NCBI RefSeq assembly: GCF_056746865.1
Contig: NZ_CM163382.1
Strand: one strand, 5' to 3'
DNA length: 64,000 bases
Shown piece after piece: positions 6,748-43,074 of this stretch. Every line of letters starts with the position of its first letter. The stretch's first letter is position 1. Position numbers and translations under genes: made by a program. The notes beneath the pieces were generated by a model. The model worked only from the letters and a program-made list of their open reading frames with translations. It had not been told where the DNA came from and made no database searches.

Positions 6748-7337
6748 TCATTCGTGACGAAAACTATTTTACTGATAAGTATGAATTAACCCGCACACAC
6801 TCTGAAGTACTGGAAGCGGTGAAAGTGGTTAAACCCGGTAAAACGCTGGATCTGGGCTGTGGCAATGGTCGTAACAGTCTTTACCTGGCAGCCAATGGTT
6901 ATGAAGTTGACGCATGGGATAAAAATGCCATGAGTATCGCCAACGTCGAGCGCATTAAATCCATTGAAAATCTGGATAATTTACACACTCGGGTCGTTGA
7001 TCTGAATAACCTTACGTTTGATGGGCAATACGATTTTATTCTTTCGACTGTGGTGCTGATGTTCCTTGAGGCTAAAACCATCCCAGGGCTGATTGCCAAT
7101 ATGCAACGTTGCACTAAACCTGGCGGTTACAACCTGATTGTGGCGGCGATGGATACCGCTGATTATCCATGTACCGTCGGCTTCCCGTTTGCCTTCAAAG
7201 AGGGAGAATTACGTCGATATTACGAAGGCTGGGAGATGGTGAAATACAATGAAGACGTCGGCGAGCTGCACCGCACCGACGCCAACGGTAATCGTATTAA
7301 ACTGCGTTTCGCCACGATGCTGGCACGTAAAAAATGA
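6744..7337 (+). CDS. tehB: Tellurite methyltransferase TehB (SAM-dependent)
   Basis: 197-aa ORF overlapping the tehA stop by 4 nt; [18 protein letters not shown]-binding motif. Confidence 0.9.
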
Positions 7338-7638
7338 CCCGCTAAGAACAAGGCGCGTGATAATTCCCCCGCTGAGATGGTTTACTGTTCTTCTTTTCGG
7401 TAAGCATAATTTTTATCGAATGGATGTGAAATTAATCACAGTAGTCGAAGTTTTTTAGCAGCTTAACTTACTGAAATTTAACTACTGATGATTGACTTAG
7501 CCCCTTTTTCGGCATTGACTATGTCGTCTGAAAAGGGGCTGAAAAATTTATTTTCACCAACACTTTTTTTGCCACAACACGAAGCGGCGCTTTTTGCTAT
7601 AACTTAGAAAGTAATATAATCATCTCAGGAAACTATTC

Positions 7639-8307
7639 ATGCGTACCACATCAATTGCGAAAGTTGCAGCTTTATGCGGCTTGTTGGCTCTGTCTGGTTG
7701 TGCCTCTAAAATCACCCAGCCAGATAAATATTCTGGTTTTTTAAACAATTACTCTGATTTAAAAGAAACAACCTCAGCAACAGGTAAACCTGTTTTACGT
7801 TGGGTAGACCCGAGTTTTGATCAAAGCAAATATGACAGCATCGTCTGGAACCCAGTCACTTATTATCCGGTACCGAAACCATCTACCCAGGTAGGGCAGA
7901 AAGTTCTGGATAAAATTTTGAGTTATACCAACACCGAAATGAAAGAAGCGATTGCGCAGCGTAAACCACTGGTTACCACCGCTGGGCCGCGTAGTCTGAT
8001 TTTCCGTGGGGCCATTACCGGTGTTGATACCAGCAAAGAAGGGCTGCAATTCTATGAAGTGGTTCCTGTCGCATTAGTGGTCGCGGGGACGCAAATGGCG
8101 ACGGGCCACCGTACCATGGATACTCGCCTCTATTTTGAAGGTGAGCTGATTGATGCAGCTACTAATAAACCGGTTATCAAAGTCGTTCGTCAGGGCGAAG
8201 GTAAAGACCTGAATAACGAAAGTACGCCAATGGCTTTCGAAAATATTAAACAAGTTATTGATGACATGGCGACCGATGCCACTATGTTTGACGTTAACAA
8301 AAAGTAA
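7639..8307 (+). CDS. ydcL: Putative lipoprotein YdcL
   Basis: 222-aa ORF; signal peptide with lipobox (LALSGC). Confidence 0.85.
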   Translation: MRTTSIAKVAALCGLLALSGCASKITQPDKYSGFLNNYSDLKETTSATGKPVLRWVDPSFDQSKYDSIVWNPVTYYPVPKPSTQVGQKVLDKILSYTNTEMKEAIAQRKPLVTTAGPRSLIFRGAITGVDTSKEGLQFYEVVPVALVVAGTQMATGHRTMDTRLYFEGELIDAATNKPVIKVVRQGEGKDLNNESTPMAFENIKQVIDDMATDATMFDVNKK

Positions 8308-10214: not shown

Positions 10215-12176
10215 GTGACCGTATCTTCTCATCGTCTTGAACTGTTAAGTCCGGCACGCGATGCCGCCATTGCCCGCGAAGCTATTTTGCACGGTGCCGA
10301 TGCTGTTTATATCGGCGGCCCTGGTTTTGGTGCCCGTCATAATGCCAGTAATAGCCTGAAAGATATTGCCGAGCTGGTGCCGTTTGCCCATCGTTATGGT
10401 GCAAAAATTTTCGTCACGCTTAACACAATTTTGCATGATGATGAGCTGGAACCCGCGCAACGGCTGATTACTGACCTCTACCAGACCGGCGTCGACGCGC
10501 TGATTGTTCAGGATATGGGGATTCTGGAACTTGATATTCCGCCGATTGAACTGCACGCCAGTACGCAGTGCGATATTCGCACAGTAGAAAAAGCGAAGTT
10601 CCTCTCTGATGTTGGCTTCACGCAGATTGTGCTGGCGCGAGAGCTGAATCTTGAGCAGATCCGCGCGATTCACCAGGCCACGGACGCGACCATTGAATTC
10701 TTTATTCATGGGGCACTGTGCGTGGCCTATTCGGGTCAGTGCTATATTTCTCATGCGCAAACAGGGCGTAGCGCCAACCGTGGCGATTGCTCGCAGGCAT
10801 GCCGTTTGCCATACACATTGAAAGACGATCAGGGGCGGGTGGTTTCCTATGAAAAACATCTGCTGTCGATGAAAGATAACGATCAGACTGCCAACCTCGG
10901 CGCGCTGATTGATGCTGGCGTACGCTCCTTCAAGATTGAAGGGCGTTACAAAGATATGAGCTACGTGAAGAATATCACCGCCCATTATCGCCAGATGCTG
11001 GATGCCATTATTGAAGAACGTGTCGATCTGACGCGTGCTTCATCAGGTCGTACTGAACATTTCTTTGTTCCATCGACGGAAAAGACTTTCCACCGTGGTA
11101 GCACAGATTATTTTGTGAATGCCCGTAAAGGCGATATTGGCGCGTTCGATTCGCCGAAATTTATCGGCCTGCCGGTGGGTGAAGTATTGAAAGTGGCGAA
11201 AGATCATCTCGATGTTGCCGTTTCCGAACCACTGGCAAATGGCGATGGCCTGAACGTGATGATTAAACGTGAAGTCGTCGGCTTTCGTGCCAATACGGTC
11301 GAGAAAACCGGAGAAAATCAGTACCGCGTCTGGCCCAATGAAATGCCAGCAGAGTTGCACAAAATTCGCCCGCATCACCCACTAAACCGTAATCTTGATC
11401 ATAACTGGCAGCAGGCACTGACAAAAACCTCCAGCGAACGTCGGGTGGCGGTAGACATTGAACTGGGCGGCTGGCAGGAACAACTGATTCTGACCCTCAC
11501 CAGTGAAGAGGGTGTCAGCATCACGCATACGCTGGACGGGCAGTTCGACGAAGCCAATAACGCCGAAAAAGCAATGAACAATCTAAAGGATGGTCTGGCA
11601 AAACTGGGGCAAACCATCTATTACGCCCGCGATGTGCAAATTAATTTGCCGGGTGCGCTGTTTGTACCAAACAGTCTGTTAAACCAGTTCCGCCGTGAAG
11701 CCGCCGACATGCTGGATGCTGCACGTCTTGCCGGTTACCAGCGGGGCAGCCGTAAACCGGTTGCTGATCCTGCGCCGATTTATCCGCAAACGCATCTGAG
11801 TTTCCTCGCGAACGTATACAACCAGAAAGCGCGTGAATTTTATCATCGCTACGGTGTGCAGCTGATTGACGCGGCGTATGAGGCACATGAAGAGAAGGGC
11901 GAAGTCCCGGTGATGATCACTAAGCATTGTCTGCGCTTTGCCTTTAATCTGTGCCCGAAACAGGCGAAAGGCAATATCAAAAGCTGGAAGGCGACGCCAA
12001 TGCAACTGGTTAACGGCGATGAAGTATTAACGCTAAAGTTTGATTGCCGCCCATGCGAGATGCACGTCATCGGCAAAATTAAAAATCACATTCTGAAAAT
12101 GCCGTTACCGGGAAGTGTTGTCGCCTCCGTAAGTCCGGATGAGCTGCTGAAAACATTGCCGAAGCGAAAAGGGTAA
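10215..12176 (+). CDS. ydcP: Peptidase U32-family protein YdcP
   Basis: Long ORF; probable GTG start at 10215 (VTVSSHRLELLSPARD...), alternative GTG at 10173. Confidence 0.8.
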   Translation: MTVSSHRLELLSPARDAAIAREAILHGADAVYIGGPGFGARHNASNSLKDIAELVPFAHRYGAKIFVTLNTILHDDELEPAQRLITDLYQTGVDALIVQDMGILELDIPPIELHASTQCDIRTVEKAKFLSDVGFTQIVLARELNLEQIRAIHQATDATIEFFIHGALCVAYSGQCYISHAQTGRSANRGDCSQACRLPYTLKDDQGRVVSYEKHLLSMKDNDQTANLGALIDAGVRSFKIEGRYKDMSYVKNITAHYRQMLDAIIEERVDLTRASSGRTEHFFVPSTEKTFHRGSTDYFVNARKGDIGAFDSPKFIGLPVGEVLKVAKDHLDVAVSEPLANGDGLNVMIKREVVGFRANTVEKTGENQYRVWPNEMPAELHKIRPHHPLNRNLDHNWQQALTKTSSERRVAVDIELGGWQEQLILTLTSEEGVSITHTLDGQFDEANNAEKAMNNLKDGLAKLGQTIYYARDVQINLPGALFVPNSLLNQFRREAADMLDAARLAGYQRGSRKPVADPAPIYPQTHLSFLANVYNQKAREFYHRYGVQLIDAAYEAHEEKGEVPVMITKHCLRFAFNLCPKQAKGNIKSWKATPMQLVNGDEVLTLKFDCRPCEMHVIGKIKNHILKMPLPGSVVASVSPDELLKTLPKRKG

Positions 12177-20478: not shown

Positions 20479-20658
20479 AGGTTCTGAGTGTAATGGTGAT
20501 TAAGTATCAGAATGATTACATTAATAACTAGCGGAAAAATTAGGCAGTTATTATGATCTAAATGTATGTTGGTGATTTTTCATCCTGTCATAGTTGATTC
20601 GCATAAGGCTTTAGAGTATCGTTATTAACCTAATAATTTATAAGTAGAAGTATTAACA

Positions 20659-21468
20659 ATGAAAGTTCAATTGTATAAATTCACGGAAGATAAAAATAAA
20701 ACCCTTACCTTCAGGTGGACGAAAAAACACTTTGAGTTTTGTATGGATAATAAAATCTTTTTAAATCATAAGGGGAAGAAGTCGTATAAAGAAAGAAATT
20801 TATTTCTTTTCTCAAAAGGTGACAAGATAACAATTGAAGATAATGTTATTGCTGAAGAATATTCAACAATGCCTGTAAAAAATTTCTCCAGTGTCGGCGC
20901 TTTTTCATTCCCGACCTGTCATTTTACAGGGAATATACATATAGGTCGATTTTGTAGTATTGCATCAAATGTAAAAATAATGGGAGGAAATCATCCTTTG
21001 AATCGTTTTACTACTCACATGATGACTTATAACGGTGAATTTGATAAGTTTGCTAAGAGTGAGTTTGAACGTAGCTGGACATTGAAACCATTCATTACCA
21101 AACCTGAAAATCCGATTATAGGAAATGATGTCTGGATAGGAAATGATGTTGTACTGAAAGGTGGCATCGCAATAGGTGATGGTGCTGTTATTGCTGCCAA
21201 TTCCGTTGTTACCAAAGATGTGCCCCCATATGCCATAGTTGCAGGAGTTCCTGCAAAAATAATCAGATTTAGATTTGATTCAAATGTTATTGATGAATTG
21301 TTGAGAATAAAGTGGTGGAATTATAATTACTCAGATCTTCCGGATAATAACAAATGTGATGATATAAATTATTTTGTTGAAGAGATGAATCGATTGATAT
21401 CAAATGGAAATATTCAAGAGATGGACTATAAAAAATTCAATCTTTCTGAGATATTTAGAGACCTATAA
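20659..21468 (+). CDS. Hexapeptide-repeat acetyltransferase, XAT/Vat (streptogramin A / xenobiotic acetyltransferase)-like
   Basis: 269-aa ORF in a low-GC islet; IGRFCSIASNVKIMGGNHPLNRFTTH and IGNDVWIGNDVVLKGGIAIGDGAVIAANSVV resemble XAT-family motifs. Confidence 0.65.
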   Translation: MKVQLYKFTEDKNKTLTFRWTKKHFEFCMDNKIFLNHKGKKSYKERNLFLFSKGDKITIEDNVIAEEYSTMPVKNFSSVGAFSFPTCHFTGNIHIGRFCSIASNVKIMGGNHPLNRFTTHMMTYNGEFDKFAKSEFERSWTLKPFITKPENPIIGNDVWIGNDVVLKGGIAIGDGAVIAANSVVTKDVPPYAIVAGVPAKIIRFRFDSNVIDELLRIKWWNYNYSDLPDNNKCDDINYFVEEMNRLISNGNIQEMDYKKFNLSEIFRDL

Positions 21469-29251: not shown

Positions 29252-30751
29252 TTAACTCGCCGTTTCAGGCTTAAACACAATTTCCTGTTGTTCTTCATCT
29301 TCCTCGACGACTGGCGCAGTGCTGTGAATTTCAGCAACGCGTTTGCGCACACCAAACCAGCCTATAACCAGCAGAATACCGATAATCGGCAGCGCCGCGA
29401 TGGTATAAGTCCCGTTCGGGTAATCGAACGCCATCAGCACCAGGACGCTCAGCAAAAACAGTAATGTCAGCCAGGAAGTGAAGGGCGCGCCAGGCAGTTT
29501 AAAACTCACATCCGCGGCTTTGCCTTCTTTAATCGCTTTACGCAGGCGCATCTGGCACACGATGATAAACGCCCATGAGGCGATGATTCCCAGCGACGCG
29601 AAGTTCAACACAATCTCAAATACGCGCGACGGCACCAGATAGTTGAGGAATACGCCGACGACATACACAACCAGTGTCGCCAGAATCCCGGCATACGGCA
29701 CATGCTGACGACTCATTTTCGCCATAAAACTCGGTGCGGAACCGCCCATCGCCATTGAGCGCAGAATACGTCCGGTGCAGTACAGACCTGAGTTCAGGCT
29801 GGAGAGGGCAGCGGTCAGCACCACAATGTTCATAATGCTGCCGATATATGGCACACCCAGTTTAGAGAAAAACGTCACGAACGGACTTTGCCCCGCCTGA
29901 TATGCGCTCCACGGCAATAACATAACCAGCAACACCACGGAGCCGACGTAAAACAGGCCAATACGCCAAATCACACTGTTAATCGCTTTAGGCACCATGG
30001 TCTGCGGATCTTTACATTCTCCGGCAGCTGTACCCACCATTTCAATGGAGGCAAAAGCAAACACTACGCCCTGAATCAACACCAGCGCAGGCAGCAAACC
30101 GTGGGGGAAGAAGCCGCCATTATCGGTAATTAAATGAAAACCAGTGGTGTTGCCATCCAGCGGCTGACCACTACCGAGGAACACTGTACCCACGACCAAA
30201 AAGGTCACAATGGCGAGCACTTTAATAAGCGCAAACCAGAACTCCATCTCGGCAAACCATTTCACACCGATCATATTCATGGTGCCAACGATGGTCAGCG
30301 CAGCGAGCGCAAAGACCCACTGCGGCACGCCGCCAAACGCACCCCAGTAATGCATATACAGAGCGACGGCGGTAATATCGACAATCCCCGTCATCGCCCA
30401 GTTGATGAAGTACATCCAGCCTGCAACGTAAGCGGCTTTCTCTCCTAAAAACTCACGGGCATAAGAGACAAAACTGCCACTGGAAGGGCGGTGTAGCACC
30501 AGCTCACCCAATGCACGCAGAATAAAAAATGAAAACAGGCCGCAGATTAAATAGACCAGTGCCAGTGCTGGCCCCGCCATTTGCAGTCGGGCTCCCGCGC
30601 CTAAAAACAAACCCGTACCAATCGCGCCGCCAATGGCGATCATCTGTACCTGGCGATTGCCCATCGCTTTGTGATACCCCTCTTCGTGGGCATTAAGCCA
30701 GCGGCGTTTCGCGGCGTGCTGATCTGAAGTGTCGGTGTCGTGTTTACTCAT
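29252..30751 (-). CDS. ansP: L-asparagine permease (APC family)
   Basis: ATG at 30751 gives MSKHDTDTSDQHAAKRRWLNAHEEGYHKAM..., 499 aa, polytopic. Confidence 0.9.
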   Translation of the reverse strand: MSKHDTDTSDQHAAKRRWLNAHEEGYHKAMGNRQVQMIAIGGAIGTGLFLGAGARLQMAGPALALVYLICGLFSFFILRALGELVLHRPSSGSFVSYAREFLGEKAAYVAGWMYFINWAMTGIVDITAVALYMHYWGAFGGVPQWVFALAALTIVGTMNMIGVKWFAEMEFWFALIKVLAIVTFLVVGTVFLGSGQPLDGNTTGFHLITDNGGFFPHGLLPALVLIQGVVFAFASIEMVGTAAGECKDPQTMVPKAINSVIWRIGLFYVGSVVLLVMLLPWSAYQAGQSPFVTFFSKLGVPYIGSIMNIVVLTAALSSLNSGLYCTGRILRSMAMGGSAPSFMAKMSRQHVPYAGILATLVVYVVGVFLNYLVPSRVFEIVLNFASLGIIASWAFIIVCQMRLRKAIKEGKAADVSFKLPGAPFTSWLTLLFLLSVLVLMAFDYPNGTYTIAALPIIGILLVIGWFGVRKRVAEIHSTAPVVEEDEEQQEIVFKPETAS

Positions 30752-31017
30752 TGCTCTCCCTGATTGCTTTAATGAAAAAGTCATATAAGTTGCCATGAAC
30801 AATGTTTATTCATCCTGGCGATGATAGTTATCACCATTATTCTTTATGGGTATAAAACTATCGGCGCAGCATCCTACCCGTTATCGATAAACGATGCAAA
30901 ACATCCCCTTACAATCCTGAAGGGGAATAATACAACTGACGAAAAAATGACAAATCCTTTTGCTGGTTAACCTGTGTACTGTCCTACACTTAATCTTTAA
31001 AAGATTGTGAGGGGCAT

Positions 31018-31635
31018 ATGATTAAGGTGTATGGCGTACCCGGATGGGGCTCTACAATCAGTGAGCTGATGCTAACACTGGCTGATATTCCTTATCAGTT
31101 CGTTGATGTCAGTGGTTTTGACCACGAGGGAACCTCACGCGAGTTATTGAAAACCCTGAACCCGTTGTGTCAGATTCCGACACTGGCGCTGGAAAATGAC
31201 GAGATTATGACGGAGACAGCGGCGATTGCATTGATGGTTCTCGATCGTCGCCCGGACCTTGCGCCACCGGTTGGGCGCGCCGAACGTCAGCAGTTTCAAC
31301 GGCTATTGGTCTGGCTGGTTGCTAATGTCTATCCAACATTCACTTTCGCCGATTACCCTGAGCGTTGGGCTCCTGACGCACCCGAACAGTTAAAGAATAA
31401 TGTTATTGAATATCGTAAATCGCTTTATATCTGGCTGAATTCACAATTGACCGCTGAACCTTATGCCTTTGGCGAGCAACTAACGCTGGTGGACTGTTAT
31501 CTCTGCACCATGCGCACATGGGGGCCGGGGCATGAATGGTTTCACGATAATGCGCAGAATATCAGCGCGATCGCTGAAGCTGTATGTCAGTTACCGAAAT
31601 TACAAGAAGTATTAAAAAGGAATGTCATTATTTAA
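31018..31635 (+). CDS. yncG: Glutathione S-transferase homolog
   Basis: 205-aa ORF with GST-like fold signature. Confidence 0.85.
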   Translation: MIKVYGVPGWGSTISELMLTLADIPYQFVDVSGFDHEGTSRELLKTLNPLCQIPTLALENDEIMTETAAIALMVLDRRPDLAPPVGRAERQQFQRLLVWLVANVYPTFTFADYPERWAPDAPEQLKNNVIEYRKSLYIWLNSQLTAEPYAFGEQLTLVDCYLCTMRTWGPGHEWFHDNAQNISAIAEAVCQLPKLQEVLKRNVII

Positions 31636-32174
31636 CAATAATGCCGGAGGTTAATGTTAATGAATCACTGGCGTAATTAACTGGATATCCATTTGTTTGC
31701 TATGAATAGTAATTAAAGTTGGTACAACTATTTATATGATTGATGTAATTTCGTTTTTTATATGAAATATCAATTTAATATAATCCGAAAATAAAACATC
31801 TTTTCGCATGTAGAGAAACATGTCGATATGATAGTGCAGTGCAGATCATGTCATCAGGGTAGGGCGGTAGCGTATTTAATCAGGGAAAGATTACGCAACG
31901 CTGCTTTTTTGTATTGAACGATTCGCATTTTATGTTTAAAAATTGCGATATTCCTTATTTCCTGAAGCTGTTTTTATTGCTTATACATGATCAAATACTC
32001 CTTACATAATTAAGGAGAACAAAATGGAACTTAATACACGCCAACAATTTGTATTACTTAAATAGACCAGTGAAGGTACGCATCAGAACATCCGGTGAAG
32101 TGATTAATATTTCGTTGAATATTTCTCCCGATTTTTGAAACCTGCTGCTGTAGAAATTCTGAACAGGAGGAATT

Positions 32175-32459
32175 ATGCCTTTAGCAGCCAAACTCACCGA
32201 CAAAGGCACCCAGCACGACGGTTATTACGAGACCGTCATCACCGCCGGGTCATCCACCGTCTTTATCGATGGTCTTCCCGCAGCCCGTCAGGGAGATCCG
32301 CTGACGCCGCATGCTAAACCGAAGCATCCCCCTCATCCCCGTAAAATCGCCAGAGGTTCTTCAACCGTCTTTATTGACGGCCTGCCCGCCGCCAGAAGCG
32401 GTGATGCTGTTGACTGCGGCGGCGTGGTTATTGGTGGCGGTACGGTAAATATAGGCTGA
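32175..32459 (+). CDS. PAAR-repeat protein (T6SS spike tip)
   Basis: 94-aa ORF with aggagg SD; duplicated GSSTVFIDGLPAAR(Q/S)GD motif. Confidence 0.75.
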   Translation: MPLAAKLTDKGTQHDGYYETVITAGSSTVFIDGLPAARQGDPLTPHAKPKHPPHPRKIARGSSTVFIDGLPAARSGDAVDCGGVVIGGGTVNIG

Positions 32460-32477
32460 TATGTCTGAGAGGTATTT

Positions 32478-34883
32478 ATGTCCTTAAAAGGTCTTCGCTT
32501 TACGCTGGAGGTTGACGGCCAGGAGCCGGACACCTTTGCAGTGGTGAATTTCAGGTTAATCCAGAACCAGTCATATCCGTTTGTGATGAGTGTGGATGTT
32601 GCCAGCGACTCTTTTATGCAGACGGCGGAGATGCTGCTGGAGAAGAAGGCGACACTGACCATCTGGCAGGGCGCAGTGGCGCAGCGTTATGTCACCGGCG
32701 TGGTGGCGGGTTTTGGCATGCAGGAGAATAACGGCTGGCAGATGCGTTATCACCTGCGTATTGAGCCGCCGTTATGGCGGTGCGGGCTGCGGCAGAACTT
32801 TCGTATCTTCCAGCAGCAGGATATCCGGACGATATCGGCCACGTTACTGAACGAGAACGGCGTCACGGAGTGGACGCCGCTGTTTTATGAGGACCATCCG
32901 GCGCGGGAGTTCTGTGTCCAGTACGGGGAGTCGGACCTGGCGTTTCTGTCCCGGCTATGGGCGGAGGAGGGTCTTTTCTTCTTTGAGCGGTTTGCGGCGG
33001 ACAGTCCGGAGCAGAAGCTGACGCTGTGCGACGATGTGGCGGGGCTGTCACAGGCGGGGGAGTTTCCGTTTAACCCGGACACATCGGCAGGAGCGGAGAC
33101 GGAGTGTGTCAGTATGTTCCGTTATGAGGCGCATGTCCGCCCGTCATCGGTGCAGAGCCAGGATTACACCTTTAAGGTGCCGGACTGGCCGGGGATGTAT
33201 GAGCAGCAGGGTGAGAACCTGAACGGACAGCTGGAGCAGTATGAGATATTTGATTATCCGGGAAGGTACAAGGATGAACAGCACGGCAAGGATTTCACGC
33301 TGTACCAGATGGAGAGCCTGCGCAGTGATGCGGAAAAGGCCACAGGGCAGAGTAATTCGCCGAAGCTGTGGCCGGGAACGCGGTTTATGCTGACGGGGCA
33401 TCCGCAGAAGATGCTGAACCGTGAATGGCAGGTGGTACAGAGCATACTGTCAGGAAACCAGCCGCAGGCGCTGCACGGCAGCCAGGGAAAGGGAACCACG
33501 CTGGGCAATCAGTTAGAGGTGATACCGGCGGACCGGACGTGGCGTCCACGGCTGCAAAACAAACCGAAGGTGGACGGGCCACAGAGCGCCATTGTCACCG
33601 GTCCTGCGGGAGAGGAAATCTTCTGCGACGAACACGGACGTGTGCGAGTGCAGTTTCACTGGGACAGGTATAACCCGGCAACGGAGGCGAGTTCATGCTG
33701 GGTGAGGGTGTCGCAGGCGTGGGCGGGGCCGGGGTTCGGTAACCTGGCGATACCACGGGTGGGTCAGGAGGTGATAGTGGACTTCCTGAACGGCGACCCG
33801 GACCAGCCGATAATCATGGGGCGGACGTACCATGAGGACAACCGTTCGCCGGGCGACCTGCCGGGAACGAAGACGCAGATGACCATCCGGTCAAAAACCT
33901 ATAAAGGAAGCGGATTTAACGAGCTGCGGTTTGAAGACGCCACCAGTAATGAGCAGGTGTATATCCATGCCCAGAAGAACATGGATACGGAGGTGCTCAA
34001 CGACCGGACAACGGATGTGAAACATGACCATACGGAAACCATCGGGAACGACCAGAAGATAACGGTGGTGAAGGGGCAGACGGTTCAGGTCGGGACCAGA
34101 AAAGAAGGGGGCCACGACCAGAGTATCACGGTGGCGAACGACCGGTGCATCACGGTACGTAATGACCAGACGCTGCAGGTGACGAATGACCGGACGGTGA
34201 GCGTGAGTAATGATGACGGCCTGTACGTCAGAAATGACCGTAAAGTGACGGTGGAAGGGAAGCAGGAGCATAAGACGACGGGGAACCATATCAGTCTGGT
34301 GGAGGGAAAGCACAGCCTGGTGGTGAAGGGGGACCTGGCGAGGAAGGTGAGTGGCGCGCTGGGGATAAAGGTGGACGGGGATATCGTGCTGGAGAGCAGC
34401 AGCCGGATAAGCCTGAAGGTGAGTGGCTCGTTTGTGGTCATCCATTCAGGGGGCGTGGACATCGTCGGGCCGAAAATCAATCTCAATAGCGGCGGTAGTC
34501 CGGGGACGCCGGTGCCGGCGCTGCAACCGGCGGTGCTGAAGACACTGGGGGATGAGAAGAGTGGTGATGGCAGTGATTCCGGAGAAGAAAATGAAGACTC
34601 TGGAGGGAACTGCGTGACCGGAAGTGGTGGTGATGATCGAGGTGACGATGAGGATGAACCTGAAAAATATACTCTCCAGTTCCATTTTACAGACGATGAC
34701 GGGATACCGTATTCAGAAACCCGCTACATTGCCTTCTTTGAGGATGGCACGCAGACCCGCGGAGAAACGGATGAAGAGGGGTATACAGAGCGTTTTTTTG
34801 TATCTAGCAAACATGAAATTAAAGTGAAGTTGTTATTTGCGAATGATGATTTTCTCTCAATGGAAGGACACTATGGACGATAA
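32478..34883 (+). CDS. vgrG: VgrG (type VI secretion spike protein) with C-terminal extension
   Basis: 801-aa ORF: gp27/gp5-like N-terminal part, beta-helix repeats (ITVANDRCITVRNDQTLQVTNDRTVSVSNDDGLYVRNDRKVTV), acidic Gly/Asp/Glu linker, then a ~70-aa C-terminal domain. Confidence 0.9.
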   Translation: MSLKGLRFTLEVDGQEPDTFAVVNFRLIQNQSYPFVMSVDVASDSFMQTAEMLLEKKATLTIWQGAVAQRYVTGVVAGFGMQENNGWQMRYHLRIEPPLWRCGLRQNFRIFQQQDIRTISATLLNENGVTEWTPLFYEDHPAREFCVQYGESDLAFLSRLWAEEGLFFFERFAADSPEQKLTLCDDVAGLSQAGEFPFNPDTSAGAETECVSMFRYEAHVRPSSVQSQDYTFKVPDWPGMYEQQGENLNGQLEQYEIFDYPGRYKDEQHGKDFTLYQMESLRSDAEKATGQSNSPKLWPGTRFMLTGHPQKMLNREWQVVQSILSGNQPQALHGSQGKGTTLGNQLEVIPADRTWRPRLQNKPKVDGPQSAIVTGPAGEEIFCDEHGRVRVQFHWDRYNPATEASSCWVRVSQAWAGPGFGNLAIPRVGQEVIVDFLNGDPDQPIIMGRTYHEDNRSPGDLPGTKTQMTIRSKTYKGSGFNELRFEDATSNEQVYIHAQKNMDTEVLNDRTTDVKHDHTETIGNDQKITVVKGQTVQVGTRKEGGHDQSITVANDRCITVRNDQTLQVTNDRTVSVSNDDGLYVRNDRKVTVEGKQEHKTTGNHISLVEGKHSLVVKGDLARKVSGALGIKVDGDIVLESSSRISLKVSGSFVVIHSGGVDIVGPKINLNSGGSPGTPVPALQPAVLKTLGDEKSGDGSDSGEENEDSGGNCVTGSGGDDRGDDEDEPEKYTLQFHFTDDDGIPYSETRYIAFFEDGTQTRGETDEEGYTERFFVSSKHEIKVKLLFANDDFLSMEGHYGR

Positions 34884-35664
34884 TAATCAAACTTCTGGAC
34901 AACCAAAGCCAGAGCCAGAAGAATGTGTGAAAGAGCAAAAAATAACTGATCATTTTAAAATAATGATTGATAAGGCTCGTAAGGCACAAAAGTTGGTTTT
35001 GATAAAAAGAGCAGATGATCTTTTGAGATGGGGAGCACAGGAGGAATATGATTTCAGTAAGATCTTTGGTGTTAAAGGAAATAAGGAGGTTAATATAAGA
35101 AAATATGGACATAATACAGGTAGGCGCATGAATGCTAGATTTCTTATGATGGATGGTGTGAGAAGATTAATGATTATAGCTAATGATTTAACAATGAGCA
35201 GTTTTATAAATTATACAGGTTGTAATGAATTTGCAGCATTCGTCAGCCCAAGTAAGGATATGCCCTATATAATTAACATAGGCGCAAAATTTGAGTATAG
35301 AGATGGCAAAAAAAATCCAGTAACGGGAAAGGATTCTCATGTTGCTACTTTATGTCATGAAATGTCTCATATTCAGTGGTATTATGGGGATAATAAAAAA
35401 GGTGGTATGTGGTCACAGGATTATACAACTACTGATAAATATTCAACGTGCAAAGAGGATGAAGTTTCATATGACGAACATATCCGTATTGCAACTAAAC
35501 TGATCTCTAAACAAAAAGATCAAATATTCGAGAATGCATATAACATAGAAAGATATTTTGAAATAAGATTAATTGAAAGTGAGATAGACTCGATTAATGA
35601 TGAAATATTAAGCAATTCAGTTAAGAAAAAAATAGCGGAATTAGAAAAAGCACTTCTCCATTAA
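34873..35664 (+). CDS. Candidate VgrG cargo effector with HExxH (zincin-like) motif
   Basis: ATG overlaps the vgrG stop (ATGGACGATAA); 263 aa; HEMSH at nt 35356-35370; GC content drops sharply at the vgrG stop. Confidence 0.55.
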   Translation: MDDNNQTSGQPKPEPEECVKEQKITDHFKIMIDKARKAQKLVLIKRADDLLRWGAQEEYDFSKIFGVKGNKEVNIRKYGHNTGRRMNARFLMMDGVRRLMIIANDLTMSSFINYTGCNEFAAFVSPSKDMPYIINIGAKFEYRDGKKNPVTGKDSHVATLCHEMSHIQWYYGDNKKGGMWSQDYTTTDKYSTCKEDEVSYDEHIRIATKLISKQKDQIFENAYNIERYFEIRLIESEIDSINDEILSNSVKKKIAELEKALLH

Positions 35665-35716
35665 CTAATAAGTCGAGAAATATATTAATGCTGCAAGCTA
35701 TAAAAAAATCATAATA

Positions 35717-36346
35717 ATGACAATCGTAAATATTATATTTTTCTATTCCTTTCAATCGACTGCGGATGAAATGGTTTTAATAAAAAAATACGGGTTTGGG
35801 CTTGAGAGAGATATCAAAGGAAGGCCATTAATTTATCCTATCGAAAATTATGATGAGTGTAAGAAAAAATGCAATCATATGAATTATATAGCGGATGTCA
35901 ATGCTCAATTAGCTATGAGTAAAAAAAACAACAGGATTTTTGCTAACATAACCTTTACTAACAATAGCTCTACCACGTATTTTTTTTCTAAATATTACCT
36001 ACCTATGAAAGTAAAAGATGGAAAAGGAGATGAATATGATGCGATATGCAAAAAACCATTCAGAATCAACTCTGGGAATATCACGTTGGACTACTTAGGT
36101 GGTTCATGTCCTTTTGAAATTAATACGAATCCTGAACGGTGGAATACTATTAAACCAGGTCGTAGTTTTTTGTTGAGTATAACCTTAAATGATATGTATG
36201 CCTTTATACCAGGAGATAATTATTATTTTATAAAATCATCTGGCTATAAATTTGTTAATGACAAGTGGTTTACACTCAAATCAATCAATAATATTTTTCT
36301 TTATTTTTTAAATTTAAAAATTAATTGTGCTGATGATTTTTTTTGA
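35717..36346 (+). CDS. Hypothetical protein, candidate immunity partner (ends at a T8 tract)
   Basis: 209-aa AT-rich ORF directly downstream of the effector candidate; stop lies in a T8 homopolymer; downstream ORF 36327-36509 is in the +1 frame. Confidence 0.4.
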   Translation: MTIVNIIFFYSFQSTADEMVLIKKYGFGLERDIKGRPLIYPIENYDECKKKCNHMNYIADVNAQLAMSKKNNRIFANITFTNNSSTTYFFSKYYLPMKVKDGKGDEYDAICKKPFRINSGNITLDYLGGSCPFEINTNPERWNTIKPGRSFLLSITLNDMYAFIPGDNYYFIKSSGYKFVNDKWFTLKSINNIFLYFLNLKINCADDFF

Positions 36347-36528
36347 TATTAATAATTTTACTACATGTGATAATTTGTTATTAGATGAAAAAAAATACTT
36401 TTTTATTAATCAGTTATGGGCAATTGAGGATGAAAAAAATTCTATTTACGTCACCCCTGATGAAATTTCTATAAGTATAGACGGCGATAACTTAAAGTTG
36501 CCATATTAGGAATCTGTGAAAGAACAAG

Positions 36529-37017
36529 GTGCGCCGCTTTTTTGTACTAAATAATTCGCATTTTAGTCACGGCAGAGAAGAAATCCATCTTCATATTGTT
36601 TGCGATGTCCCTGATGAACTTATTGATTTCACGTTTGAATGGAAAGGTCAGAAGAAATTATGCGTGGCAGTCTCCTTTTGGTCAATAATAGCAGAACAAA
36701 AGAAAGAGCCAGAAATGACGGTCAGATATTATATCAGTTCTGCTGATTTAACCGCAAAAAAGTTCGCCACAGCGATACGAAATCACTGGCACGTGGAGAA
36801 TAAGCTGCACTGGCGTCTGGACGTGGTAATGAACGAAGACGACTGCAAAATAAGAAGAGGAAACGCCGCAGAATTATTTTCAGGGATACGGCACATCGCT
36901 ATTAATATTTTAACGAATGATAAGGTATTCAAGGCAGGGTTAAGACGCAAGATGCGAAAAGCAGCTATGGACAGAGACTACCTCGCGTCAGTCCTTGCGG
37001 GGAGCGGGCTTTCGTAA
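36529..37017 (+). pseudogene. H-repeat-associated (ISAs1-family transposase) 3' remnant
   Basis: Translation ...[44 protein letters not shown]...[22 protein letters not shown] resembles the C-terminus of H-rpt proteins; no N-terminal half present. Confidence 0.7.
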
Positions 37018-37125
37018 TCTTGCCCTGGCGATCGAATAGCGCAGATGACGGTGCTCTAAATTTGAATCTAATAAGCCGGTGTTATTTTTCATCCACTATT
37101 AAAATCTTGACACAACGAGGCAACA

Positions 37126-37686
37126 ATGAAAAAAAGCAAAAAAATTAAAACAATGAACCATCAAAATAATAGCGGGATACAAAATCAACCAGACTATCAC
37201 ATCGAAATAGAAAGAAAAAATATGGTAAGATTGCTTGATGAACGTATTGATAAAGTTTACGGTTCATTGCTAGGACCAATGAAAAAGAAAAATATAGATA
37301 AAATACGTCATTTTACACTTGATGTAATGGTGTTTATTCTTGACACGAACCCTCGTGTTTGTAATAAATTATCCAGGGAAATAATATCTTTAGCGCAAAA
37401 TACCTTCATTGAAAAAAACGTTAATTTTTCAACTTTTAATAATGAACAGCATAGAATAAGGGAGTATATGAATGAAGGTGGTGGAATACGATGGTTTACA
37501 TGGGATAACCCCGAGATATCTTTTGTTCGTGCATCTTTTGGCCTTTTTGTCAAAATGGAAACAAAAGGTGATCATGAACATACACTAAGTGACACATTTC
37601 TTCAGATTGTTGAGTGTGTTAATTTAAATATAGGACTTATTGCAAAAGATGAACTGGTAAAAATCATCAATAAACACTTTATGTAA
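37126..37686 (+). CDS. Hypothetical protein (AT-rich orphan ORF)
   Basis: 186-aa ORF, ATG with acgagg SD, low GC; no motif recognised. Confidence 0.45.
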   Translation: MKKSKKIKTMNHQNNSGIQNQPDYHIEIERKNMVRLLDERIDKVYGSLLGPMKKKNIDKIRHFTLDVMVFILDTNPRVCNKLSREIISLAQNTFIEKNVNFSTFNNEQHRIREYMNEGGGIRWFTWDNPEISFVRASFGLFVKMETKGDHEHTLSDTFLQIVECVNLNIGLIAKDELVKIINKHFM

Positions 37687-38045
37687 AAATATACTTCTGT
37701 ATGAAGTTATAATAATACAGTGAAAATCATCAAATTATTAATTAATGATGCTCTTTGTTATTATTTACTTTTTACAATTGAATCAGGGGTTTTATTTTCT
37801 GTAGTAAAGTTGTATTTTTGCTAAAGGTGATAAAGTACAGGTGTTTATATTAAATTAGAACTCCCCTTAATTATCATAAATACAAAGAGGTGAAAACATG
37901 CGGGGGTGTTTTCGTTAAATAATACCATGGTGAATTAATAACATGCTATCAGTGATATACATATTTTCTCTAACAAAGTTTTAGTAAAATTACGCGTAGT
38001 AAGAAGATTCCGCCAAAGATTCCATATAATAATATTAAGGTTGTT

Positions 38046-38681
38046 ATGAATAAAGGTAATAGATTACAACAGTTAGAAGATGCGTGTCGTGATATTATTA
38101 AAATTAACATGTGGTATGAACTCCCCGATTATGTATTTTTTTCAATATCTGACACCATCGATGGGACGAGTGATGAATTCGCAATAAATGTGTATAAAAA
38201 TATCGATAAAAGTCTTCTTGAAATATTATTGCATCCATCTGTTTTACTGTCAGTTGTTGAGTCCTTACAAAGTAATACTATAGCTGAGTATATCGTGAAA
38301 TTGTCTGAAATAGAGATGAATTATGACGACTTGCTAATATCGGATGTTAAATCATGTCTTTTTATCAACTATGGATTCAATAACAGTGAATCGGTTGCGC
38401 TATTTAATAAGATTTACCGCGAATTAAAAGATATTGTAAAATCATCAAGAGTACATATAGATCATGAGAAAGATATTTTTGATGGCCTTAATCAAATCTT
38501 GGCTTTTTCCGATAATAATAAACATGAGTATTTTTTATATATAAAGGCATATTGGCTCAGTTTATACTTTTGTGAAATTTCACAGAACGTGAGAGAAAGA
38601 GATAAGTTGTCATTTTATTATAATGAATTTTCTGTCCGATTTCCTAATGTTGTCCTATATCCGTCATGCTACAAATTGTAA
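38046..38681 (+). CDS. Hypothetical protein (AT-rich orphan ORF)
   Basis: 211-aa ORF, ATG start, low GC; no motif recognised. Confidence 0.45.
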   Translation: MNKGNRLQQLEDACRDIIKINMWYELPDYVFFSISDTIDGTSDEFAINVYKNIDKSLLEILLHPSVLLSVVESLQSNTIAEYIVKLSEIEMNYDDLLISDVKSCLFINYGFNNSESVALFNKIYRELKDIVKSSRVHIDHEKDIFDGLNQILAFSDNNKHEYFLYIKAYWLSLYFCEISQNVRERDKLSFYYNEFSVRFPNVVLYPSCYKL

Positions 38682-38806
38682 GGCTTGGCACCTGAAATTC
38701 ATTGTTAATTCGAGACGCTTGATTGTCCACTATATCAAAACAGTCATACCTCGGAATTTTCTCGCATTAGTCCATACGGTATTCAATATTCGCAACTGTG
38801 CCCTGA

Positions 38807-39007
38807 AATAAAAAACTGCAAAACTGCTTTTTCTTGACCTGTCCCAATCACGCAAGACTACTTTTAGTAGAGACCTCCAGCTATGTCGATTTTAGTGCCG
38901 CCCGCGCATTTTATACAAAACAGGGCTTTATTAATGAAGCTATAATACGCAATTACTATGATGTTGGTGAGGATAAATTAATCTTCACTAAAAATATGCA
39001 ATCGTGA
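38807..39007 (+). pseudogene. 3' remnant of a GNAT acetyltransferase gene
   Basis: Open frame without start encodes ...YVDFSAARAFYTKQGFINEAIIRNYYDVGEDKLIFTKNMQS; A-x-x-FY-x-K-x-GF is the classic GNAT C-terminal motif. Confidence 0.4.
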
Positions 39008-39073
39008 GATAAAATATGCTTTTAACTCATATTGAAACATTGCTTAAGCAACTTGGTTGCTGCATATGATTCT

Positions 39074-39643
39074 TTAGCCCGCGGTGACTCGCTTGCCGCT
39101 GGTAACAAACGTGCCAGCACCTAAGTGATGTAGTTTATTGAGTTTATCATCATCAAACTGCCAGCGGCCTTCGACAAATACCCGTGCGTCTGCCGCTGCT
39201 GATACCACCTCGCCAAACAGCGTGTCGTATTTTTCTTGCGCGGAAGTCGCAGGTAGCAAGCGGCACTCCATCCACGCCAGACATTTTTCCTCGACCAGAG
39301 GCAAACCAAGTACCGGACCTTTCACTACTGGAATGCCGTAGCAATTAAATTTATCTTCTTCACGACCCGACACACTTCCCACCGCCCACGTCCAGTTAGT
39401 TGCTGCAACGCCCGGGATAACGATGCCAAATTTACCGTTACGTTCAATCAACTCCCTGGTCCATGTCGATTTATCTACCACGATCGCAACACGTGGCGGT
39501 TCAAACTCTACCGGCATCGACCAGGCCGCAGCCATCACATTACGTCGCTGTGATTTTTCATCAAAAGTTGTTATCAAAATAGTTGGGCCATGATTTAACA
39601 GACGGCTGGCATGGTGTAATTCGACAGGGATGAATCGGCTCAC
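39074..39643 (-). CDS. yddH: Flavin reductase-like domain protein
   Basis: 189-aa ORF with ATG start; flavin-reductase-like fold by sequence. Confidence 0.85.
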   Translation of the reverse strand: MSRFIPVELHHASRLLNHGPTILITTFDEKSQRRNVMAAAWSMPVEFEPPRVAIVVDKSTWTRELIERNGKFGIVIPGVAATNWTWAVGSVSGREEDKFNCYGIPVVKGPVLGLPLVEEKCLAWMECRLLPATSAQEKYDTLFGEVVSAAADARVFVEGRWQFDDDKLNKLHHLGAGTFVTSGKRVTAG

Positions 39644-39817
39644 GGTATCGCCTCGCTAAGAAGGGGGTTTTAAAAGCGTAGCTCGTAACGCTATAAGTAA
39701 CGAAATTAACGGGATTGGCGATTTGCGAACGTGATGCATGTCCGCGATCGCACAAAATAGCCGGTGCGGCGTCTATTCCAGGTTATAAGTTGAGAAAACC
39801 ACTAAGGGAAACGCCTG

Positions 39818-40663
39818 ATGACGCCCATTCTGAATCATTATTTTGCCCGTATTAACTGGTCGGGAGCTGCTGCGGTCAATATTGATACGCTGCGTGCATT
39901 GCACCTGAAACACAATTGCACCATTCCATTCGAAAACCTCGACGTTTTGCTGCCAAGGGAAATACAGCTTGATGATCAATCGCTGGAAGAGAAACTGGTG
40001 ACAGCCCGTCGTGGTGGTTACTGTTTTGAGCAGAATGGCGTGTTTGAGCGGGTGTTACGCGAGCTGGGGTTTAACGTTCGCAGCTTGTTAGGGCGCGTAG
40101 TGTTATCAAATCCGCCAGCATTACCGCCGCGCACCCATCGTTTGTTGTTGGTGGAACTGGAAGGGGAAAAATGGATTGCTGATGTCGGTTTCGGTGGACA
40201 GACGCTAACCGCGCCGATTCGTTTAGTTCCCGATCTCGTGCAGATCACGCCACACGGAGAGTATCGGTTGTTACAGGAGGGTGATGATTGGGTGTTGCAG
40301 TTTAATCATCATCAGCACTGGCAGTCGATGTACCGTTTTGATCTCTGCGAGCAGCAACAAAGCGATTATGTAATGGGCAATTTCTGGTCTGCGCACTGGC
40401 CGCAGTCGCATTTTCGCCATCATTTGCTGATGTGCCGCCATTTGCCGGACGGCGGCAAGCTGACACTGACCAATTTTCATTTTACCCATTATGAAAATGG
40501 GCACGCGGTGGAGCAGCGAAATCTACCAGATGTGGCGTCGTTATATGCCGTGATGCAGGAACAGTTTGGTCTGGGCGTAGATGATGCGAAACATGGCTTT
40601 ACTGTGGATGAGTTAGCGATGGTGATGGCGGCGTTTGATACGCACCCGGAGGCGGGAAAATAA
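39818..40663 (+). CDS. nhoA: Arylamine N-acetyltransferase (N-hydroxyarylamine O-acetyltransferase)
   Basis: 281-aa ORF; catalytic Cys in RGGYCFEQN context. Confidence 0.9.
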   Translation: MTPILNHYFARINWSGAAAVNIDTLRALHLKHNCTIPFENLDVLLPREIQLDDQSLEEKLVTARRGGYCFEQNGVFERVLRELGFNVRSLLGRVVLSNPPALPPRTHRLLLVELEGEKWIADVGFGGQTLTAPIRLVPDLVQITPHGEYRLLQEGDDWVLQFNHHQHWQSMYRFDLCEQQQSDYVMGNFWSAHWPQSHFRHHLLMCRHLPDGGKLTLTNFHFTHYENGHAVEQRNLPDVASLYAVMQEQFGLGVDDAKHGFTVDELAMVMAAFDTHPEAGK

Positions 40664-40743
40664 TTTATGTCAGGTTGCCGGATGCGGCGTAATGAACTGC
40701 ACCCCAAATGTTGGACATAATCTGACATCTGAAGGTGCAGTTT

Positions 40744-41265
40744 ATGAAACATTCATTTGAAGTAAAACTTGCCGCTGTAAATCATTACCTGGCTGGTCAT
40801 GCAGGCATCATTTCTACGGTAAAACTCTTTCAACTTTCTCACACCAGCCTCTCACACTGGATTAATCTTTTTCTTCTTCACGGTCCTCGGGCACTGGATT
40901 GCAGACACAAGCGTAGCTATTCTCCTGAAGATAAACTTTGCGTGGTTCTTTATGCTCTCGGGCATTCTGAGTCTCTACCCCGGGTAGCTGCCCGGTTTAA
41001 CATTCCCAGCCACAACACGGTTAAAAACTGGATAAAAGGCTACCGCAAATCTGGTAATGAGGCCTTTATCAGGCGCAGGAAGGAGAAAAGCATGACCCGT
41101 TCTGATGATACCCATGAAAACGAGGCAAACATGACGCCGGAAGAGATGAAGAATGAGCTGCGTTATCTTCGCGCAGAAAATGCATATCTGAAAGCCATGC
41201 AGGAGCATCTCCTGGAAAAAAAGCGCCAGGAGCTGGAGAAAAAACGAAAGTCATCCGGAGCCTGA
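40744..41265 (+). CDS. IS3-family transposase OrfA (HTH)
   Basis: ATG at 40744 with gaaggtg SD; ends shortly after the slippery heptamer A_AAA_AAG at 41217-41223. Confidence 0.8.
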   Translation: MKHSFEVKLAAVNHYLAGHAGIISTVKLFQLSHTSLSHWINLFLLHGPRALDCRHKRSYSPEDKLCVVLYALGHSESLPRVAARFNIPSHNTVKNWIKGYRKSGNEAFIRRRKEKSMTRSDDTHENEANMTPEEMKNELRYLRAENAYLKAMQEHLLEKKRQELEKKRKSSGA

Positions 41266-41369
41266 GGTGCGGACACTGCCAGTCTGACCTGTTAAAGGCT
41301 GCAGGGCTGGCCAGAAGCACGCTGTACTACCAGCTGTCACTGCAGAAGGCTAAGGACAAGTATGCTGAT

Positions 41370-42124
<755 letters not shown>

Positions 42125-42172
42125 AAACGCCTTATCCGGCATACATAGACCTGATAAGCGAAGCGCATCAGG
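42125..42172. repeat. REP palindromic units (right half of the interrupted REP plus an adjacent REP)
   Basis: aaacgccttatccggc...gacctgataagcgaagcgcatcaggc. Confidence 0.6.
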
Positions 42173-42180
42173 CAACGGTT

Positions 42181-43074
42181 TCAGAATTCAATTGCCCATT
42201 CGGCATGAAACAAAATCACCGCTGTGCCAGAAATGGTGACTTTCTCCGGTTGGTTATTGCGAATTGTCACCGTCACTTCAATCACGCCGTCACGCCCCAA
42301 TGCGCGCCCCTGATGGCCTTTAACATGCAACACGTTGCCATCGTGGGGCAATACGTTGTGATGTACCAACCATGCACCCATCGGGCCATTGGCATTGCCA
42401 GTCACCGGATCTTCCACAATACCAATCGCAGGCGAGAACATGCGACCATCGGTTTCATTTTTGCCTGGGCGGATCTGGAACGGGAAGAAACCATTGCAGC
42501 CAATCTGTTTGCTGATAGCGGTCAGCGCAGCAAGATCAGGCGAAAGGGCGTCGATATCCACTTCTGGTTTCAGTGGGATCATCACTTTTGAGTGTCCTGT
42601 GGTTGCCACCTGAATTGGCAAGCCTGACAAAATATCGTCCTCAGTGAGATGAAGCGCGTTGATAATCGCTGCACGTGTTTCACCTTCCAGCGGTGGCTCA
42701 AAGCCCGGCGTACCTTGTTCCAGCGAAATACGATAATCATCGTTGTGATTTTCGATAGTCACGCGATGTTTTCCTGACAGTGACGTTTGCCAGACCGTGC
42801 AATTTCCTAAACCTAACACCTTCGCACGTACATAGTGCGCAGCTACTGTCGCGTGACCACAAATCGGCACTTCAACTGTTGGCGTAAAGTAGCGGATGCG
42901 CACATCGCTGTCGTCGCTGTGCAGCAGAAAAGCAGTTTCCGAATGACCTAATTCGCGGGCGATAAGCTGCATTTGCGCTTCACTGAGATTATCGGCGGGG
43001 AAAACAACACCGGCAGAATTGCCGCGAAACGGTTGTGAGGTAAAAGCATCGACGTGGTACACCTGCGGTTTCAT
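42181..43074 (-). CDS. yddE: PhzF-family isomerase-like protein
   Basis: 297-aa ORF with ATG start. Confidence 0.9.
   Translation of the reverse strand: MKPQVYHVDAFTSQPFRGNSAGVVFPADNLSEAQMQLIARELGHSETAFLLHSDDSDVRIRYFTPTVEVPICGHATVAAHYVRAKVLGLGNCTVWQTSLSGKHRVTIENHNDDYRISLEQGTPGFEPPLEGETRAAIINALHLTEDDILSGLPIQVATTGHSKVMIPLKPEVDIDALSPDLAALTAISKQIGCNGFFPFQIRPGKNETDGRMFSPAIGIVEDPVTGNANGPMGAWLVHHNVLPHDGNVLHVKGHQGRALGRDGVIEVTVTIRNNQPEKVTISGTAVILFHAEWAIEF

Follow-up and report, generated by a model that had tools for sequence, protein, structure and literature searches.

A transposase remnant in a T6SS effector island of Escherichia coli is very probably an inactive, internally deleted H-repeat orthologous to H-rptE

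The ORF at positions 36529-37017 of the window, by which we mean the whole 64-kb stretch of DNA analysed here, encodes little more than the C-terminal end of a transposase, and this raises the question of what element it once belonged to, how the remainder was lost, and whether it marks the edge of a genomic island. This DNA is a piece of E. coli chromosome that reaches from ydcI to maeA and, over 25 kb, matches strain 2017C-4173W12 with 99.98% identity; the remnant sits between yncG on one side and yddH-nhoA on the other. The same interval in K-12 contains yncH, rhsE (a pseudogene), ydcD, yncI (another pseudogene), ydcC (which encodes the H-repeat transposase), and pptA. In the window, the order of genes is PAAR, VgrG, a peptidase named as M35, and a low-GC hypothetical, followed by the remnant, two more low-GC hypotheticals, and a GNAT fragment (Table 1). 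Here, the original prediction of a remodelled rhsE locus is borne out: with yncG on the left and yddH-nhoA on the right, a PAAR-VgrG-M35-like peptidase-hypothetical module stands in place of rhsE-ydcD-yncI, and K-12 rhsE, ydcD, and yncI have no match in the searched interval 30000-41500. Rather than lying downstream of an Rhs core or tip at the RhsE site, the remnant follows this module. The variable region spans 31634-39039 when compared with K-12, and 31881-39039 when compared with XJ5.2 (whose shared left core reaches 31880), with core sequence back at 39040. The G+C content is 0.27-0.34 on either side of the remnant and 0.42-0.43 inside it, and the core level of about 0.5 is regained only near 39000. 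No Rfam family reached its gathering score in 30000-42500.

Some further features of the window are recorded here in passing. An IS3-family element (IS1397 by PGAP, with a programmed frameshift) lies at about 40744-42092 between nhoA and yddE, where K-12 is without it. By the annotation of the near-identical reference strain, a gene for a CatB-related O-acetyltransferase is found at about 20658-21467, between patD and yncL. In addition, a 37-bp block at 31839-31875 (GTGCAGATCATGTCATCAGGGTAGGGCGGTAGCGTAT) is kept in K-12 some 270 bp upstream of rhsE, with the DNA on either side of it differing between the two strains. As a candidate for a repeated attachment site this block was rejected, the 51-bp query 31830-31880 giving one match per genome in the 390 genomes with a match.

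For identification of the encoded protein, K-12 YdcC (378 residues) was used as a tblastn query, and its residues 226-378 matched window positions 36556-37014 with 94% identity (144 of 153 residues; E = 1e-91). All other matches in the six frames of the 64 kb had E > 2, and none gave the N-terminal half, which had been called missing from the outset. True homology to YdcC begins at residue 229, corresponding to position 830 of the element, and so exactly 150 codons are left (229-378, again at 94% identity), much as predicted for an ISAs1-type H-repeat remnant of about that length whose truncation point was to be mapped on a full-length protein. Moreover, the NCBIfam model NF033564 (ISAs1 family transposase) was matched with 117.3 bits against a cut-off of 70, though only at profile positions 201-314 of 314, that is, in its last third. 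Similarly, Pfam DDE_Tnp_1 was matched only at profile positions 139-200 of 200 and DDE_Tnp_1_assoc was not matched, while full-length K-12 YdcC has DDE_Tnp_1_assoc together with the whole DDE domain. By these profiles, the ORF is what remains of an ISAs1 family member and not a functional one. In the 99.98%-identical genome, PGAP labels 36556-37017 as 'ISAs1 family transposase, incomplete, missing N-terminus'.

The start of the ORF is equally telling. Its first 9-10 codons are non-native, and its GTG lies within the terminal sequence of the element and is out of frame in three other strains, where T7 is found in place of T6, which agrees with the predicted lack of a proper start. The 150 codons themselves are open in the four strains inspected. 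A full-length ORF hidden behind an upstream frameshift, the finding that could have overturned the prediction, is not there: 35676-36513 is an unrelated low-GC gene that is 98% conserved in HM670. Around the remnant, consensus scans for promoter and terminator signals gave counts within the range of shuffled controls.

We took the ends of the element from the 1291-bp block common to the K-12 copies H-rptB (yhhI) and H-rptE (ydcC), which are 97.9% identical over it; the H-repeat is reportedly 1,291 bp long, in agreement with this block. Measured in this way, the window copy is 514 bp long, compared with a unit of about 1.3 kb (1291 bp in K-12), and is made up of two end pieces fused to each other. 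Missing are positions 53-829 (777 bp), comprising the leader, the RBS, the ATG, and codons 1-228, and the junction, GCATTTTA/GTCACGG, shows a microhomology of at most 1 bp. Of the recombination or deletion that had been proposed at the truncation point, the deletion stands, though not a junction with foreign DNA, since positions 1-52 are retained and fused to position 830. The right part is 95.0% identical in nucleotides to K-12 H-rptE and ends in an intact right inverted repeat, the last 25 nt being identical to the K-12 copies. At the other end, positions 26-52 are 96% identical to H-rptE, and positions 1-25 are in exact register with other left ends. The left inverted repeat is degenerate (CTGTGAAAGAACAAGG... 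compared with the canonical CAGGGAAAGATCATCA...), with only about 13 of these 25 bp matching H-rptB and CTGTG in place of the canonical CAGGG. Positions 3-10 read GGGAAAGA in RM12761 and HM670, and the left repeats by copy are CTGTGAAAGA (window), CTGGGAAAGA (RM12761), ATGGGAAAGA (HM670), and CAGGGAAAGA (canonical). Since the first 25 bp differ from canonical ISEc1, the assignment of the extreme left terminus rests on this register and on the better-preserved GGGAAAGA elsewhere. No direct repeat that could be a target-site duplication flanks 36514 and 37027, the right flank here being a rearranged one, and direct repeats are also absent around the three full-length copies inspected; for the ISAs1 family, target-site duplications of 8-10 bp have been reported. 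An 18-nt likeness between the M35 gene (at 34921) and the left end of the remnant was set aside as chance-level for a region of this size by a rough estimate.

Table 1. Coordinates of the H-repeat remnant, its parts, and the features around it in the window
Feature	Position	Strand	Basis or remark
Mechanical ORF, pseudogene	36529-37017	+	GTG start inside the left end of the element; 162 aa
Probable internally deleted H-repeat (ISEc1-type, ISAs1 family), 514 bp	36514-37027	+	Positions 1-52 + 830-1291 of 1291; blastn map, MAFFT alignment
Retained left end, positions 1-52	36514-36565	+	Includes degenerate left inverted repeat
Deletion junction	36565-36566	+	...GCATTTTA/GTCACGGCAG...; alignment
Retained right part, positions 830-1291	36566-37027	+	Codons 229-378; stop 37015-37017; right inverted repeat 37003-37027
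PAAR	32175-32459	+	ORF list, PGAP name
VgrG	32478-34883	+	ORF list, PGAP name
M35-like peptidase, HExxH motif (CHEMSH)	34873-35664	+	PGAP name; Pfam M35 weak, E = 0.002, below gathering score
Low-GC hypothetical, split by homopolymer frameshift	35717-36346 + 36327-36509	+	Frame comparison with HM670
Low-GC non-core segment, 2 kb	37028-39039	+	Abuts right end of the element; no K-12 counterpart; replaces pptA
Two low-GC hypothetical genes	37126-37686, 38046-38681	+	No Pfam or NCBIfam family
Second H-repeat fragment, positions 1-155	31881-32034	+	Left inverted repeat CAGGGAAAGATTACGCAACGC, leader, RBS, ATG + 3.7 codons (ATG GAA CTT AA)

All genome counts refer to a set of 5426 complete E. coli genomes. 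Of these, 220 carry the deletion junction, and because 218 of the 220 have the same left flank, it is confined to one locus, with no sign of mobility. Comparison between strains, also called for at the outset, revealed that behind this shared junction there are three different right flanks, all starting at 37028. In O145:H28 strain RM12761, the same remnant is followed by the right flank of K-12 ydcC and an intact pptA (98.1% identity over 3.5 kb), which makes the remnant the orthologue of H-rptE. In FDAARGOS_144, its right end is fused to pptA at a point within that gene (K-12 position 10224 of locus L002), and in the window and 175 genomes it is joined to the 2-kb low-GC segment. The XJ5.2 locus, with neither T6SS genes nor an H-repeat, contains this same segment, at 92.7% identity from window position 37056 onward. 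Thus, four locus types were seen, and the three that carry the remnant each have their own right flank; these part ways directly after the shared G that follows ...CTTGCCCTG. The point of rearrangement is the right end of the element and not its truncated 5' side. The remnant is the last element before the core genes in the RM12761 and FDAARGOS_144 types. In the window, though, it is followed by 2 kb of non-core low-GC DNA, and its proposed role as an island boundary does not hold there; it is instead an internal boundary between modules of the island.

The peptidase gene overlaps the end of VgrG by 11 bp and encodes a likely T6SS effector, for which the low-GC gene behind it might possibly be the immunity gene. 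Homopolymers in the latter vary by strain (an A run near 35700, and T8 compared with T7 at 36335-36345), and if read through, this gene would end at 36509, just 4 bp before the left end of the H-repeat. On the other side, pptA is reduced in the window to its last 36 bp (39040-39075), and the GNAT acetyltransferase is present as a 3' fragment (ORF 38834-39007) that is complete in XJ5.2 (10939-11406 of locus L007), with 464 bp more. The FDAARGOS_144 type deserves a separate mention. In three genomes, a full-length 1291-bp H-repeat (6976-8266 of locus L005 in FDAARGOS_144) interrupts the M35-like peptidase gene, and ahead of it lie another VgrG C-terminus and three further genes. There, the 3' part of the old peptidase gene, the hypothetical gene, and the deleted H-repeat persist downstream as a displaced module.

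Taking these observations together, we regard it as very probable that the remnant is an inactive, non-autonomous, internally deleted H-repeat of the ISEc1 type in the ISAs1 family, orthologous to K-12 H-rptE (ydcC). HM670 is instructive here, as it agrees with the window in its left flank (98.3%) and in its variant of the left end, yet its element runs on to position 66, continues with positions 621-783, and then stops. This indicates that an element reaching past the junction of the window was once present at the same site and decayed by different deletions in each lineage. An uninterrupted copy in the context of the window was found in none of the 5426 genomes when searched with a synthetic query (the window flanks with the K-12 interior), and the three best matches to this query were built differently, having the same remnant preceded at 1.2 kb by a full-length copy. 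As no full-length copy occurs at the exact site, the ancestor is a reconstructed one. Accepting this, a roughly full-length element would first have come to lie 4 bp past the stop codon that closes the PAAR-VgrG-effector module. Positions 53-829 were next lost, probably by an illegitimate deletion, along with the leader, RBS, start codon, DDE_Tnp_1_assoc, and the first two-thirds of the DDE domain, leaving the termini and the 150 C-terminal codons. Finally, the DNA to the right would have been swapped or deleted exactly at the right end of the element, by lineage, as in the three flanks described above. This may have involved the element end with a transposase acting in trans, or plain illegitimate recombination, and in the window the right end came to adjoin a 2-kb segment known otherwise from loci that have no H-repeat.

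Alternatively, the junction might be a fusion of two copies in the same orientation, made by a deletion that began at position 53 of the first, ended at position 829 of the second farther downstream, and took with it the DNA between them. Tandem H-repeats do occur at this locus in K-12, where yncI adjoins ydcC, and in FDAARGOS_144 a full-length copy lies 1.2 kb upstream of the remnant, interrupting the M35 gene at the equivalent of window position 35324. Moreover, the left 25 bp of the remnant represent a different sequence type from its ISEc1-like rest. Nonetheless, we think such a fusion unlikely, given that the HM670 arrangement is most simply read as one element decaying in place, and that a second copy is not required by any of the observations.

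A second H-repeat fragment is found in the window, its left end (31881) and that of the remnant (36514) having been returned as a direct repeat in a repeat search. Positions 26-155 of this fragment are 93.8% identical to K-12 H-rptE, and its left inverted repeat is well preserved. It stops 140 bp upstream of PAAR, and this arrangement of fragment and PAAR is found in 686 of the 5426 genomes. It also leaves a mini-ORF of 13 codons (MELNTRQQFVLLK, then a stop). In principle, its leader might drive PAAR-VgrG; promoter and terminator signals around the fragment were within the range of shuffled controls. Its left repeat (31881-31905) and the right repeat of the remnant (37003-37027) make up a 25-nt inverted pair, 80% complementary and 5.1 kb apart, that brackets the whole PAAR-VgrG-peptidase-hypothetical cassette. 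Conceivably, 31881-37027 (5147 bp) is, or has been, a composite mobile unit bounded by H-repeats, for the delivery of T6SS effector cassettes, and homology to the T6SS-free XJ5.2 does end at 31880 and resume 28 bp past the right repeat. However, there is no target duplication, only the one locus, and no observed transposition of H-repeats (PMC3032704), and a search for the precise empty site (a synthetic join of 31731-31880 and 37028-37177, at coverage of at least 80%) gave no hit among the 5426 genomes. We accordingly look on such a unit as very unlikely.

Returning to the internally deleted H-repeat as the preferred reading, we considered whether its 150 codons have been kept for a purpose, as with Tn5 Inh, a shortened transposase that poisons its full-length counterpart. 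By this analogy, the truncated protein would be expressed and retained as a regulator. The codons being open in four strains is compatible with it, as are the differences between strains, which are mostly synonymous (15 synonymous and 7 non-synonymous codons between the window and RM12761), against the expectation for free decay. Exchange with intact copies accounts for such a bias equally well, and recombination or gene conversion with these would fit the observation that the remnants do not group apart from intact copies, the RM12761 remnant being only 8 nt from YdcC. In contrast, the private changes of the window lineage number 6 synonymous and 5 non-synonymous (including R267W and L257Q), some of them non-conservative; among the six copies compared, and with counts this small, this lineage has the most lineage-specific non-synonymous changes. 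With the native leader, RBS, and ATG deleted, the one start codon upstream, a GTG, shifted out of frame in other strains, and the promoter scan at chance level, a regulatory role strikes us as highly improbable. Scarcely more credible is that the 514-bp element, in the manner of a MITE, is still mobilised through its termini by intact ISEc1 copies elsewhere in the genome, for although both termini are kept, the right repeat is intact, and about four more H-repeat matches are found in the host genome, the left repeat is degenerate, no target duplication is seen, 218 of the 220 junction genomes share one left flank with no new insertions, and a published genome paper (PMC3032704) states that transposition of H-repeats has not been observed.

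Set beside known systems, the remnant shares with H-rptE (ydcC, b1460; K-12 RhsE) 95-96% nucleotide identity in the retained parts, an identical right inverted repeat, and a place in the same yncG...yddH interval. Unlike H-rptE, it is without 777 internal bp (leader, start, codons 1-228, DDE_Tnp_1_assoc, and most of DDE), its left 25 bp are divergent, and its neighbours are a VgrG effector module on the left rather than rhsE-ydcD-yncI and a 2-kb foreign segment on the right rather than pptA. Like yncI, the K-12 pseudogene next to ydcC, it is a decayed ISAs1-type element at the downstream end of a polymorphic-toxin locus, though yncI belongs to a distinct subfamily (about 67% identical) and was broken by point lesions, not by one clean internal deletion. 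With MITE-like IS derivatives it has in common two termini around a shortened interior devoid of coding competence, but it is single-copy at its one locus, with a degenerate left repeat, no target duplication, and no evidence of mobilisation. Partial H-repeats of RhsC are reportedly on record as well. The remnant is an ordinary one, decayed H-repeats beside Rhs/VgrG toxin loci being a classic feature of E. coli, and PGAP flags it as a pseudogene.

Most likely, the remnant today does nothing by itself, and is a scar that provides a stretch of repeated homology where two modules of a hypervariable T6SS effector island meet. It matters little on its own account and serves mainly as a marker: the junction, present in 220 genomes, and the three right flanks offer landmarks for working out how effector modules came to be stacked, displaced, and exchanged at the yncG-yddH hotspot. 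Here, the pattern suggests that the ends of H-repeats are preferred breakpoints in the swapping of modules at this site.
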